Assembly (NCBI GenBank): GCA_963842525.1
Contig: CAWJGT010000003.1
Span: forward strand, 384,001 to 448,000
From: an uncultured Holophagales bacterium
GTDB lineage: Bacteria; Acidobacteriota; Thermoanaerobaculia; Multivoradales; UBA5704
Reading direction: 5' to 3'
DNA length: 64,000 bases
The notes beneath the pieces were generated by a model. The model was not told where the DNA came from. It made no database searches and saw only the letters and a list, made by a program, of their open reading frames with translations. The translations under genes and the position numbers were made by a program. How positions within the stretch are numbered: the stretch's first letter is position 1; every line of letters starts with the position of its first letter. Below, one piece after another: positions 46,901 to 64,000 of the stretch.

Positions 46901-49630
46901 CCGGCAACGGCAAGGTGGACAGAGCCGCCCTGCCGGCGCCCGAGCTGCGGCCCGCCGGCTCGTTCGTGCCCCCCGCAACTTCGGCCGAGCAGGCGCTGGC
47001 CGAGATCTGGCGCGAGCTCCCTGGGCGCCGAACGGGTGGGCTCCGCCGACAACTTCTTCGCGCTCGGCGGCGATTCGGTCCTGAGCCTCCAGGTGGTCGG
47101 CAGGGCGGCGCGCGCAGGGCTCCATCTGACCGCGAGCCAGGTCTTCCAGCAGCAGACGCTCGGCGAGCTCGCCGCTGCGGCCGCCGCCGCCCCGTCCGAC
47201 GACGGACCGGTGCCGGTCCCGCGCGACCGCGACCTGCCTCTCTCCTACGCCCAGGAGAGGCTGTGGTTCCTCGATCAGTTGGCCGATGGCAGCGCCGTCT
47301 ACAACATCCCCAGCGCGGTGCGCCTCGCAGGACCGTTCAATATGGCGGTGCTCGCGCGCAGCCTGAACGAGGTGGTGCGGCGCCACGAGGCTCTGAGGAC
47401 GACCTTTCCGGAGGCCGGCGGGCGGGCGCGCCAGGTGATCGCCGGCTCCCTGCGTGTGGCGATCCCGGTTATCGACCTGCGGCGGCTGCCCGCGAGCGGC
47501 CGGAGCGAGGAGGTCGAGCGGCAGGCGCTGGCGGCAGGGCTCTATCCCTTCCGCCTCGGCAGCGAACCGCTGCTGCGCGCGGTCCTGCTACGGCTGGACG
47601 CCGAGGAGCACGTGCTGCTGTTCACCATTGCGCACATCGCCAGCGACGGCTGGTCGATGGCTCTGCTGGTGCGCGAGGTCGCGACGCTCTATGCCGCGTT
47701 CACGGCCGGTCGCCCCTCGCCGCTGCCGGAGCTGCCCTTGCAGTACGCCGATTTCGCGGTGTGGCAGCGCCGGTGGCTGCAGGGGGACGCCGCGGCGCAG
47801 CGTCTCGCCTACTGGACGCGGCGGCTCGCCGGCTCCGCCTCCCTCGAGCTCCCGGCCGATCGCCCGCGTCCGCAGCGCGCCACGTTCCGCGGCGCCAGCA
47901 GGAGCTTCGACCTGCTGCCCGCGCTCGCCCGGGAGGTGAGGGCCCTGGGCGCGCAGCAGGGGACCACCCTGTTCATGACCCTGCTCGCTGCCTACGGTGC
48001 ATTGCTCCACGTGCTCTCCGGCCAGAACGACGTCGCAATCGGGACCGATGTGGCGGAACGCAGCCGTCCGGAGATCGAAGGGCTGATCGGATTCTTCGTC
48101 AATCAGCTCGTCCTGCGCCTGGACCTCGGCGGCGATCCCACGTTTGCCGAGCTGCTGCAGCGGACCCGCGCCATCGCGCTCGAGGCGTTCGATCATCAGG
48201 GCATCCCCTTCCAGCACCTGGTGGAAGCCCTCAAGCCGCCGCGGCGCCCCGGCCGGCAGCCTTTCTTCCAGGTCAAGCTCGTCCTGCAGGCAGCCCCGGG
48301 GGACGACCGGCCTCCGGAGGAAGGGGACGGGCCGGGCCTGCGCGTGAGCGCCCTCGACCTGGAGTATGGGATCACGCAACTGGACCTCATCCTCTTCGTC
48401 TGGGAGCGCGGCCAGGACCTGCGATGCACTCTTCAATATGCGCGCGACCTGTTCCTGCCGGCGACGATCGACCGGATGATCAGGTTCTTCGTCAGGTCGC
48501 TCGAGCGCGCGGTCGCCGAGCCGACGACCCGGCTCAGCGCCCTCGGCGCCGAGCTCGAAAACGTGGACCTGGAAACCAGAGCCAAGGAGACAACGATGCA
48601 ACAGGGACCCAGCAAGTTCAAATCCATCAAGCCGAAAGCGGTCAACCTCTCGCAGCGGCCGGTCGTGTCGCTGGAGCCGCACGGCGACAAGGGGCTGCCG
48701 CTGGTCGTGCAACCGGCGGCCGAGAACGTGGACCTGGCCGACTGGGCCGCGCACAACGGACAGCTCCTCGAAGACAAGCTGACGCAGCATGGGGCGGTCC
48801 TCTTCCGCGGTTTCGAGATCGACTCGCCGCCGGTGTTCGAGCGCTTCGCGGGGGCCATCTGCCGCGAGTTCTTCAGCGAAAACGGCGAGCACCCCAGGAC
48901 CTCAGTCAGCGGCAACGTCTATACGCCGGTCTTCTATCCGCCCGAAAAGCAGCTCCTGTGGCACAACGAGAACTCCTTCAACCATCGTTGGCCGCGCAAG
49001 ATCTGGTTCGGCTGTGCGCGGCCCGCCGACACCGGCGGCGAGACGCCGGTCGTCGACAGCCGCCAGGTCTACCAGCGCATCAGCCCGGCCCTGCGAGAGA
49101 AGTTCGCTTCCCGGAAAGTGATGTATGTGCGCAACTATGGCGGCGGGCTCGGGCTCGACTGGCAGACGGTGTTCCAGACCGACGACAAGGCCAGGGTGGA
49201 GCAGGTCTGCCGTGACAACCGGCTCGAGGCCGAGTGGAAGGACGGCGACCGCCTGCGCACGCGTTGCGTCAGACCGGCGGTGGTGAAACATCCCCTGACC
49301 GGCGAGATGGTGTGGTTCAACCAGGCCCAGCACTGGCATGTCTCCTGCCTCGATCCGGCCACCCGCGAATCCATCTCGACGCTCTTTGCGGAGGAGGACT
49401 TTCCCAGGGCCTGCTACTACGGGGACGGCTCGCCGATCGAGGACGCGGAGATGCGGGAGATTCTGGACGTCTACCGGGGCCTGGAGGTCAGCTTCCCCTG
49501 GCAGCGCGGCGACGTGATGCTGGTCGACAACCTGCTGGCCGCCCACGGCCGCAACGCCTTCGCCGGTGAGCGCAAGATCATGGTGGTGATGGGCGACATG
49601 ATGAGTTTCGACGAGGTCGAGTGCTCGTGA
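40963..49630 (+). CDS. Megasynthase 3: KS-AT-ACP-Cy-A(Cys)-PCP-C-TauD dioxygenase, about 2888 aa after correcting a +1 frameshift at ~47019
   Basis: ATG at 40963 with GGAG at 40953-40956, overlapping the previous stop. KS QTACSTS; AT GHSVG and HAFH; Cy [14 protein letters not shown] and [10 protein letters not shown] code DLYNLSLIWK; PCP GGDSV; C AHIASDG; TauD WHNENS and HGRNAF. Confidence 0.92.
44070..47180 (+). other. Heterocyclisation module Cy-A(Cys)-PCP with no oxidase domain (thiazoline)
   Basis: DxxxxDxxS Cy motif and Cys code. The A8-A10 region is uninterrupted, so there is no Ox insertion. Confidence 0.85.
48596..49630 (+). other. TauD/TfdA Fe(II)/2-oxoglutarate dioxygenase domain (SyrP-like beta-hydroxylase), fused in frame and preceded by its own RBS and ATG
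   Basis: [12 protein letters not shown] facial motif, [17 protein letters not shown] and [15 protein letters not shown] at 48584-48589 lies 6 nt before an in-frame ATG at 48596. Confidence 0.88.
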
Positions 49631-61950: not shown

Positions 61951-64000
61951 TCCAGGACGACCTGCCGGCGGTCGATTCGGGTGTGCCCGCCAGCGCTCCG
62001 GTCGCCGGGTATCGTCTGTCGCCGCGGCAGCAGAGGATCTGGACGCTCGGCGAGGCCGCTACGGCGTGTTGCGACCTGCGTCTGTGCGGAGATCTCGACC
62101 GGTCGGGTCTCGCCACTGCGCTGGAGCGCATCGTCCGCCGTCACGAGATCCTGCGCACCACCTTCCGTCATGCGAGCGGCTTCAAGCTGCCGGTGCAGGT
62201 GGTCGGCGCGCAGGCCGGTTTCGGATGGCGGTACGAAGATCTGGCGCCTGGCACCGCGGCGGATCGCGAGGAGGCGCTCGCCACGCTGCTCGCCGCGGAA
62301 GCTTCCAGCTCCCTGGACCTCCAGGCCGGGCCGCCTCTCCGTGTGCTGCTCGTCCGCCTCGCCGCCGGCGAGCATCTCCTGCGGCTGCGCCTCCCGGCCC
62401 TGTGCGCCGACCGGCGCAGCCTGGAGAACCTGGCCGGCGAGTTGGCGGCGGGCTATGAAGGGATGGAGCCGACGCCGGCCGACGACGACCTCGTCCAGTA
62501 CCTGCAGTTCTCCGAATGGCACCACGAGGAGCTGGCAGGTCCGGCCGCGGCGGCGGGGCTGCGCTTCTGGCGCGAACGCGCTCTGGCCGGCGGGGCGCCG
62601 CTGCCCTGGCTGCTGCCGGCCGCTGCCGGGTCGCCGCCGGCCGGCTCTGCGTCGACGCTCGTGGTCGCCTTGCCTGCCGAAGCCACGGCGGTGCTCAAGC
62701 GCGCGGAAGGAAGGGAAGCCGACCTGCTGCTCGCCGGCTGGCAGGCGCTGCTCTGCCGCCTCGCCGGCGGGGAAGAGGCGGTCGTCGGAGCGCTTTGCGA
62801 GGGCCGCCGCTTCGAGGAGCTGGCAGGCTCGATCGGGCCGTTCGCCGTCGCAGTGCCGCTCGCCTGCCGCGTCGATCGCGACGCCTCCCTCTTTGACCTC
62901 GCCGACCGGGTCGCTGCCGCACGCGCGGAGGTGGGGGAGCGGCTGGATTTCTACGAGCCGGACGGACAGCTCCCGGAGATCGGCTTCGGCTTCGCGGCTT
63001 GGCCGGAGTCGCGGACGGCGGGCGGCGTGACCTTCGAGGTCACCGGCCTGCGGGTGCCCAGTGAAAGGTTTGCTCTGGAGCTCGAGGGCCGGCGCCGGTG
63101 TGGCGGCTGGGAGCTCGCCCTGCATTACGACCCGGCACGCTATGCGCCTGCGGCGGCCGAGCGCCTGCTCGGAGGTCTCGTCGCCGTCCTTCGTTCGGCC
63201 GCCGACGACCCGGGGGGGCGGATCGCGGATCTCGAGATCCTGGACGAGCCGGAGCGCCGCCGTCTGCTGGTCGAGGTCAATGCGACACGGCGCGATTTTG
63301 GCTCGGAGCTGGCCACGCACCAGCTCGTCGAGGAGCAGGCACGGAAGACCCCTGCCGCACTGGCCCTGACTTGCGGCCACCGCAGCCTGACCTATGCGGC
63401 CCTGGATGTCGCGGCCGAGGCGCTGGCGCACCGGCTCCGCCAGCTCGGCGTCGGGCCTGAGGCGCGAGTGGGGATCTGGGCTGCGCGTTCGCCTGAAGCG
63501 GTCGTCGCGCTGCTCGCGGTCTGGAAGGCCGGCGGCGCCTTCGTGCCTCTCGATCCTTCCTATCCGGCCGAGCGGCTCGCCTTCATGTTGCGGGATGCGG
63601 GCGCTACGGCCCTTCTCGCCGCGCCGGCGGAGCGTCTCCCCGACTTCGCTGGGCCGGTCCTCGAGGTCGATCTCGATCCCGAGCGCCCGCCGGAGCCTCT
63701 GCCGGCCGGAAGGGGCTCGGTGGATCCCGGCAACCTCGCCTACGTCCTCTACACCTCCGGCTCGACCGGCCTGCCCAAGGGGGTCGCAGTGCCGCACCGC
63801 GGCCTGGTCAACTACCTGCTCTGGGCCGTCGACCGGTATCAGGCCGCGGCCGGATTCGGCGCTCCGGTCCACTCGTCGCTGGCTTTCGACCTGACATTGA
63901 CCGGGCTGCTCGCACCGCTGCTCGTCGGCGGGGCCGTCGAGCTGCTGCCGGAAGACATCGGCGCGCTGCCGGCCGCGCTGCGCTCCCGAGGCGGCGCGAG
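61947..64000 (+). CDS. Megasynthase 5 (partial, runs off the window): I(C-like)-A(Asn/Asp)...
   Basis: Absent from the ORF track because it has no stop. ATGA overlap at 61947-61950. Hand translation gives [46 protein letters not shown] and HSSLAFDLTLTG, with the start and end segments in the same frame. Confidence 0.88.
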   Translation, partial: MIQDDLPAVDSGVPASAPVAGYRLSPRQQRIWTLGEAATACCDLRLCGDLDRSGLATALERIVRRHEILRTTFRHASGFKLPVQVVGAQAGFGWRYEDLAPGTAADREEALATLLAAEASSSLDLQAGPPLRVLLVRLAAGEHLLRLRLPALCADRRSLENLAGELAAGYEGMEPTPADDDLVQYLQFSEWHHEELAGPAAAAGLRFWRERALAGGAPLPWLLPAAAGSPPAGSASTLVVALPAEATAVLKRAEGREADLLLAGWQALLCRLAGGEEAVVGALCEGRRFEELAGSIGPFAVAVPLACRVDRDASLFDLADRVAAARAEVGERLDFYEPDGQLPEIGFGFAAWPESRTAGGVTFEVTGLRVPSERFALELEGRRRCGGWELALHYDPARYAPAAAERLLGGLVAVLRSAADDPGGRIADLEILDEPERRRLLVEVNATRRDFGSELATHQLVEEQARKTPAALALTCGHRSLTYAALDVAAEALAHRLRQLGVGPEARVGIWAARSPEAVVALLAVWKAGGAFVPLDPSYPAERLAFMLRDAGATALLAAPAERLPDFAGPVLEVDLDPERPPEPLPAGRGSVDPGNLAYVLYTSGSTGLPKGVAVPHRGLVNYLLWAVDRYQAAAGFGAPVHSSLAFDLTLTGLLAPLLVGGAVELLPEDIGALPAALRSRGGA

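Follow-up and report, generated by a model that had tools for sequence, protein, structure and literature searches.

Here we describe a putative second translation start inside gene 3, a nonribosomal peptide synthetase (NRPS) gene of an uncultured Holophagales bacterium. The gene lies in a 64,000-nucleotide (nt) stretch of assembly GCA_963842525.1 (contig CAWJGT010000003.1, positions 384,001 to 448,000 of the forward strand; G000:C3:384001-448000), which we call the window. Gene 3 ends in a condensation (C) domain fused to a hydroxylase domain of the TauD family, while genes 4 and 5 each open with an inactive C-like interface (I) domain followed by an adenylation (A) and a thiolation (T) domain. 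At the C-TauD junction, a Shine-Dalgarno (SD) motif precedes an in-frame ATG that is conserved in many relatives, and on this evidence the fused gene probably gives rise to two forms of the enzyme, one tethered and one free, whose clients would be the I modules of genes 4 and 5.

A putative internal start site in gene 3

An earlier note, made from the window alone, had pointed to AAGGAG 6 nt before an in-frame ATG at 48596 and to a free product of 344 amino acids (aa). Coordinates and reading frame confirmed both, the ATG opening a 344-aa product in the frame of the TauD domain. The features of gene 3, which also includes ketosynthase (KS) and acyltransferase (AT) domains, are:

40945..46985, + strand: gene 3, first frame, KS-AT-T-C-A, a polyketide synthase (PKS) plus NRPS module (Pfam, frame profile)
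46986..49630, + strand: gene 3, second frame, with T (47018-47176), C (47231-48544), linker and TauD
48560..48630, + strand: putative internal translation initiation region, an A-rich, weakly folded linker
48584..48589, + strand: SD-like AAGGAG, 6 nt before the ATG, in Lys-Glu codons of the linker
48596..49630, + strand: 344-aa TauD/TfdA-type Fe(II)/2-oxoglutarate dioxygenase (Pfam core 48710-49588, stop codon 49628-49630)

That gene 3 ends in C-TauD, as the earlier note had stated, was evident from its last open reading frame (ORF) piece (46328-49630), which matched PP-binding, Condensation (339 bits, aa 302-739) and TauD (165 bits, aa 795-1087). The PF02668 score of the TauD domain was 164.6 bits against a cut-off of 27, and 168.4 bits in the genome search. 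The terminal C domain carries the motif AHIASDG and thus retains the second His. In an alignment of 21 homologues, H123, E125, H317, R319 and R326 (numbering of the 344-aa product) show no variation; we take H123, E125 and H317 to be the His-x-Asp/Glu...His metal triad and assume that a conserved Arg serves 2-oxoglutarate. The closest solved sequence was the clavaminate-synthase-like protein At3g21360 (PDB 1y0z, E = 4e-32), and a TauD/TfdA-like protein (PDB 9yut) matched at E = 2e-24. Both share the fold family, and both are distant matches that are uninformative on substrate or I-domain docking.

That the organism uses SD motifs was borne out by the canonical 3′ end of its 16S rRNA (...GGATCACCTCCTTTCT; given also as CCTCCTTTCT) and by the strong SDs at real starts, GAGGAGG at gene 5 and GAGGAG at gene 6; the internal SD is equally strong. 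A strict 6-mer SD at a distance of 4-9 nt was found at 171 of 15349 internal in-frame ATGs in long ORFs genome-wide (1.1%), so that two to three would be expected among the 231 internal ATGs of the cluster. By duplex energy alone, 23 of the 231 were equal or better, duplex energy being a poor SD discriminator in this G-rich genome; motif plus spacing was used instead. Taken alone, the SD-ATG pair exceeds chance only mildly. The site stands apart by its position, because it coincides with the start of stand-alone homologues, lies in the lowest-GC segment and is weakly folded. Positions 48571-48630 form the lowest-GC 60-nt window of the cluster (GC 0.50, rank 1 of 7563). The predicted fold from -30 to +30 around the ATG has a minimum free energy of -7.9 kcal/mol, compared with a median of -22.5 for internal ATGs of the cluster, only two of the 231 being as weakly folded or weaker; the six real gene starts, at -10.5 to -21 kcal/mol, are folded more tightly.

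We searched for relatives in one genome per species and kept the best 80 of 194 loci. These come from Acidobacteriota (Thermoanaerobaculia, Pyrinomonadaceae), Chloroflexota and cyanobacteria, with a top identity of 68%, the closest being from Acidobacteriota. The TauD domain is fused to an upstream ORF in 45 of them (42 to a C domain, three to a methyltransferase) and stand-alone in 35, of which 26 follow a gene ending in a C domain. The layout of C-TauD followed by I-A-T that the earlier note had recognised recurs among them: the next gene opens with an I-type domain in about 65 of the 80 loci (judged by eye), and each of the 51 A domains that could be read behind these I domains has a code of the form DLTK/DATK..EVG. 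By these gene orders, C, TauD and I-A-T are a conserved unit in which TauD is either fused or free.

The internal start was retained in many of the fusions. The start of stand-alone homologues lies 12-13 residues ahead of a conserved FKxIKPK motif, a position that Met occupies in many fusions as well. Of 46 fused homologues, the window included, 27 retain a start codon here, either ATG or SD-preceded GTG; because GTG, seen in three, counted only together with an SD, the tally is biased slightly upward. The SD/ATG conservation on which the earlier note would have judged its proposal was found here as well: SD matches of at least 5/6 precede 22 of the 27 kept starts and 106 of 1044 control in-frame ATGs of the same ORFs, and matches of 6/6 precede eight of the 27 and six of the 1044. 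The motif coincides with the codons for a conserved acidic residue and Arg, most often GAA-AGG. Within eight codons before the start, AGA or AGG encodes Arg at 23 of 34 positions, compared with 310 of 4311 elsewhere in these ORFs, and GAA encodes Glu at 23 of 41 (769 of 3333 elsewhere), while fusions without the start spell the same D/E-R residues GAC-CGC. The fold z-score against the rest of its own ORF had a median of +2.1 (less folded) where the start is kept (n = 26) and 0.0 where it is lost (n = 19).

On a tree built from 81 TauD sequences, only five changes are required between the fused and stand-alone states. The window groups with 15 other fused rows (support 92, end branches 0.1-0.5) in a clade free of stand-alone forms, and just one of these 16 lacks the start. 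A protein search at E ≤ 1e-30 yielded 772 longer proteins. In a set of 119 longer proteins, Met (37%) outnumbers any other residue at one linker column and Glu (59%) comes next in the chain; in the adjoining columns Met falls to 0-4%.

Two side observations concern other features of TauD loci. A more distant TauD within a 10975-aa open frame (C9:1581477-1582346) is likewise preceded by GAA-AGG-GGG...ATG (QERGSGM), and an I-type domain lies 2.3 kb beyond it. In some relatives, a SAM-dependent methyltransferase of about 460 aa follows the TauD domain or is fused before it (L015, L016, L022, L031, L048, L051, L054, L063, L066 and L081; P0005, P0013, P0019 and others), an arrangement that suggests hydroxylation followed by O-methylation.

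Interface modules of genes 4 and 5 and their putative hydroxylase

The putative clients of the hydroxylase open the next two genes. In gene 4, the later modules include an epimerization (E) domain:

49650..50940, + strand: gene 4 I domain, motif LPALCADG (start 49650/49656; 424.5 bits to the I profile)
51025..52743, + strand: gene 4 module 1, A (code DLTKVGEVGK) and T
52813..61950, + strand: remainder of gene 4, C-A-T-C-A-T-E-C
61947..63236, + strand: gene 5 I domain, motif LPALCADR
63372..64000, + strand: gene 5 module 1, A, code DLTKVGEVGK

The earlier note had described both genes as opening with a dead C-like domain followed by an A domain of Asn or Asx type, and both descriptions were upheld. 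LPALCADG in gene 4 and LPALCADR in gene 5 replace the HHxxxDG of the ordinary C and E domains in the same genes, and the two opening domains cover only positions 5-320 and 5-323 of the 456 positions of the Condensation profile. The A domains after both I domains share the identical code DLTKVGEVGK, which we take to be of Asn type by the Stachelhaus table, with E rather than H at position 322. Gene 4 ends, as had been claimed, in a C domain without TauD: this domain is intact (HHLVIDG, 60568-61842), follows an E-type domain and is accompanied by no TauD match. The stop codon of gene 4 overlaps the ATG of gene 5 (ATGA, 61947-61950), with GAGGAGG 5 nt upstream, an arrangement expected for translational coupling.

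We scored I domains with a profile built from 21 of them, in which the gene 5 domain is the first row and the gene 4 domain lies outside. Nine domains of the genome scored 304-456 bits, whereas more than 140 ordinary C domains scored at most 261 bits; orphan I domains outside the profile scored 320-436 bits. The TauD domain directly precedes the gene 4 I domain, while the gene 5 I domain follows a plain C domain although its A code is of the partner type. In the second module of gene 5, an ordinary C domain precedes a near-identical A code (DLTKVGEVAK); of two similar residues in this gene, the I domain thus singles out one.

The earlier note had named a second TauD gene beyond position 64000 as a finding that would count against its proposal. 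We detected none down to the end of the cluster (C-A-T-TE, at ~79374), and the gene 3 domain gave the single PF02668 match on the whole 2-Mb contig. Nor did we detect hydroxylases of other types among the ORFs scanned 20 kb upstream and ~20 kb downstream of the cluster; the gene 3 TauD is the sole hydroxylase found in it. Because gene 5 opens with a canonical I-A pair, and its like second module has an ordinary C domain, its first module is very probably, on domain order and code, the client of a hydroxylase encoded elsewhere.

The whole genome contains nine I-type domains and eight TauD matches, and five of the nine I domains have no TauD beside them: that of gene 5 and those at C34:294823, C3:527042, C3:1538691(-) and C3:588996(-). 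Two of the other four orphans precede Gln-like A codes (DAWQ..LID) and two precede the Asn-type code. Those at C34:294823 and C3:527042 begin a protein encoded directly downstream of a gene with a plain terminal C domain.

To compare clusters, I domains and TauD matches lying on one contig, up to 40 kb away, were tallied by hand for the window and 27 further clusters, many of whose contigs end early. I modules outnumbered TauD genes in 11 of the 28. An excess of at least one was present in eight of 17 clusters with the internal start and three of 11 without it (p = 0.43), an excess of at least two in four of 17 and none of 11 (p = 0.13), and a stand-alone TauD in six of 17 and seven of 11 (p = 0.25). 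The rise of the I-module excess with the start is a weak, non-significant trend that agrees with the idea of a free form.

Proposed mechanism and its alternatives

In the mechanism that we propose, the C-TauD junction would act as a translation initiation region, with AAGGAG, 6 nt and an ATG in an A-rich, unfolded stretch. Ribosomes translating gene 3 would yield the tethered enzyme, and ribosomes initiating at 48596 would yield the free 344-aa enzyme. TauD, a putative Fe(II)/2-oxoglutarate beta-hydroxylase, would act on a carrier-bound residue in the I-A-T modules of Asn type at the start of genes 4 and 5, where the inactive I domain may be a docking platform presenting that residue to the hydroxylase. 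The gene 4 module would adjoin the tethered copy. The gene 5 module, since a plain C domain precedes it and it lacks its own hydroxylase, would be served most simply by the diffusible copy. Initiation, hydroxylation of both residues and the assignment of each form to a module are what we infer. Internal initiation at 48596 is likely, and hydroxylation of the first residue of gene 5 is somewhat favoured; that the free form is what serves the gene 5 module is a tentative assignment, a little short of an even chance. As a whole, a tethered and a free hydroxylase from gene 3 with clients in genes 4 and 5 is the best explanation overall, and we hold it to be about evenly balanced.

Several points weigh against this explanation. 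The start is absent from 19 of the 46 fused homologues, so it is dispensable for the fused design. The conservation statistics count related sequences as independent, which inflates their p-values, and an independent-pair test of start against open structure gave no signal (same direction 1.4, opposite 1.0, no difference 0.6), with little power because only three pairs were supported (eight on all branches). A linker rich in Lys, Glu and Arg by itself favours purine-rich motifs. The association of the start with an excess of I modules across the 28 clusters was not significant (one-sided Mann-Whitney p = 0.097). The 31-kb contig of locus L057 combines two I modules with a single fused TauD that lacks the start; one tethered enzyme may therefore serve two modules. 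Lastly, the apparent frameshifts in genes 3 and 4, if real, would mean that the pathway is broken in this strain. The proposal of the earlier note, that the gene produces a fused and a free hydroxylase with the free form serving gene 5, found partial support: neither the search for a second TauD gene nor the check on SD/ATG conservation refuted it, and the link to I-module excess was weak and non-significant. Its phrase "dual cis/trans" is also loose, because the tethered domain would itself act on another protein, that of gene 4.

SD and ATG could instead be a silent relic, if a stand-alone TauD gene coupled to an upstream C gene was fused to it by loss of the stop codon and the old site, though readable, fell out of use. 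The start has been lost from 19 of the 46 fusions. The order of C-ending gene, TauD and I-A-T in 26 of the 35 stand-alone relatives fits such a history, as do the at least eight changes of the start state among fusions on the tree. So does L031, in which an in-frame stop sits one codon before the ATG, such that a single change separates the fused and stand-alone forms. A decaying relic, however, would not be expected to keep its start, its rare codons and better SDs. The fusion state changes only those five times, and the deeply diverged fused rows of the 16-member clade nearly all retain the start, though the linker from Met to the FK motif shows hardly any residue conservation; the rare AGR and GAA codons persist in genomes of 69-76% GC; and SD matches of at least 5/6 are commoner at the fused sites (22 of 27) than at the true starts of stand-alone genes (10 of 35). 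A relic, which we regard as improbable, accounts least easily for the codon choice and the deep clade. The start, if used, could also serve another purpose: more hydroxylase relative to a long, poorly translated synthetase, a partner subunit for the tethered domain, or supply of I modules elsewhere in the genome. The genome totals of nine I domains and eight TauD matches, with five I domains lacking a TauD neighbour, speak for such a use. A fused and a stand-alone TauD also stand side by side before one I module in three places (G000 C23, L027 and G004 C86), and these tandem pairs hint that two copies may be able to act at one site. Secondary products have precedents in lmbN (PMC4351081) and in an endolysin reported to associate with a shorter form made from its own gene (PMC4777826). 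Oligomerisation is conjecture here, however, and two of the orphan I modules have Gln-like A codes, unlike all 51 partners of this TauD family; we consider another purpose unlikely.

The internal start would be irrelevant to gene 5 if the tethered TauD alone served both I modules, or if the gene 5 I domain only docked to the terminal C domain of gene 4. Besides L057 (two I modules to one TauD), fused clusters without the start have more I modules than TauD genes in L071 (3:2) and L015 (4:3), and the recurrence in the genome of orphan I domains after a plain terminal C domain (C34:294823, C3:527042) would also fit. Against these variants, the gene 5 I domain scores as a full family member, and even orphans outside the profile score well above every ordinary C domain; its A code is identical to that of TauD-adjacent partners, and it marks only one of the two like residues in gene 5. 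A purely tethered enzyme leaves unexplained how it would reach from gene 3 to a module two proteins away. To either variant we give little credence, and a hydroxylase made in both forms from gene 3 stays our preferred explanation. As a separate observation on paired TauD genes, the C23 locus (G000 C23:115525-118767(-)) combines a C-TauD fusion, a separate TauD gene and one I-A-T module with a Glu-like A code (DAKDLGVVD).

As to the frameshifts, the frame profile showed stop-less changes of coding frame at ~6075, ~9500, ~29215, ~46985 and ~50790, all inside conserved NRPS domains, by which genes 1 to 4 are each broken as assembled. The change at ~46985 falls between the A and T domains of gene 3 (context CTCCCTG) and that at ~50790 inside the gene 4 I domain; some lie in short homopolymers (G6, CCC). 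Programmed frameshifting was rejected as an explanation for the five changes, given their positions inside conserved domains and partly in short homopolymers. A crude genome-wide scan, with both strands counted and a false-positive rate that is not established, gave 531 stop-less frame switches, or ~3.5-4 per 100 kb of coding sequence compared with ~5-6 per 100 kb in the cluster. Because similar switches occur all over the genome, assembly error is the likelier cause, and the five changes are probably assembly-wide indels rather than decay of the cluster.

If the tethered-and-free mechanism is correct, NRPS genes that end in a fused beta-hydroxylase may be two-product genes in many Acidobacteriota and Chloroflexota, one gene serving several I modules and perhaps other assembly lines of the same genome; we regard this extension as less likely than not. 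Structure prediction for NRPS products usually assumes one hydroxylation per hydroxylase gene, at the neighbouring module. The number of I modules, not of hydroxylase genes, would instead predict the hydroxylated residues, and if the conserved start gives a free copy, the products of a widespread family would contain more beta-hydroxy residues than are now predicted. The gene 3 TauD would also be a rare natural megasynthase domain deliberately made both tethered and free. This is relevant to pathway engineering, in which tailoring enzymes can be fused or left free, and to annotation, as gene callers never report nested products.

Cluster setting and comparison with known systems

The window (72.6% G+C) covers most of a ~75-76-kb PKS/NRPS lipopeptide cluster of about 20 modules that begins with a fatty acyl-AMP ligase (FAAL), in a genome of 9.95 Mb over 34 contigs. 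Third-position G+C indicated one long coding run on the + strand from ~3671 to ~79374, 15 kb beyond the window. The domain layout, based on Pfam scans and a local domain search and including heterocyclisation (Cy), oxidation (Ox) and thioesterase (TE) domains, is:

Gene 1: FAAL-T-C-A-T-C-A-T
Gene 2: KS-AT-T, then eight C-A-T modules
Gene 3: KS-AT-T-C-A-T-C-TauD
Gene 4: I-A-T-C-A-T-C-A-T-E-C
Gene 5, 61947 to 69644, past the window end: I-A-T-C-A-T-E
Gene 6, 69654-75368 (= L009 8654-14368): C-T-Cy-A-Ox-T
Gene 7: C-A-T-TE, cluster end at ~79374, about 15 kb past the window
After gene 7, opposite strand: MacB/FtsX-type ATP-binding cassette (ABC) exporter

The C domain that follows the PKS carrier of gene 3 (44074-45399) is divergent, with the motif LHISFDF and a match to Pfam profile positions 6-352 only, and was missed by the other C and I queries. 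In gene 6, Ox belongs to the nitroreductase family, and a C-T pair without an A domain of its own precedes the heterocyclisation/oxidation module. The genome is very rich in NRPS genes: more than 150 condensation-type domains were scored, open frames reach 10975 aa (C9) and 9263 aa (C3), and NRPS genes are near-continuous from ~C3:387000 to ~C3:616000. No siderophore hallmark was found in the cluster genes scanned.

The architecture of C-TauD followed by I-A-T is already known; here it has Asn-type rather than Asp-type partners (DLTKVGEVGK, on our assumed reading of the code table) and belongs to a non-proteobacterial lineage, with relatives in Acidobacteriota, Chloroflexota and cyanobacteria rather than Proteobacteria. 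In the passages on the NRPS-integrated Asp/His beta-hydroxylases with I domains (PMC12971057, PMC12230676, PMC12628792, PMC7100376), TauD is likewise fused after a terminal C domain, an inactive condensation-like domain likewise stands ahead of A and T at the start of the next synthetase, and the hydroxylase acts on a carrier-bound residue; those passages make no mention of a conserved internal start. As the corresponding passages describe, fused C-TauD and stand-alone TauD each precede a hydroxylated-residue module in the cyanochelin B and C and potashchelin clusters (PMC12628792; bioRxiv 10.64898/2026.07.24.740629; PMC7100376), and the cyanobacterial TauDs are among the 80 closest relatives of the gene 3 domain. 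Hydroxylase genes and hydroxylated modules are paired 1:1 there, whereas the window has two I modules and one gene.

For an internal start in an NRPS-fused hydroxylase, a literature search covering few subscription papers gave lmbN of the lincomycin cluster as the only like case. According to the passages on it, lmbN is a fused carrier protein and isomerase gene in which the internal ribosome-binding site and start from before the fusion are still active, and two protein forms were detected by Western blot (PMC4351081). It differs from gene 3 in its domains and pathway and is, as described there, a single case rather than a trait shared by many lineages. The conserved internal translation initiation region at the C-TauD junction thus appears to be new.

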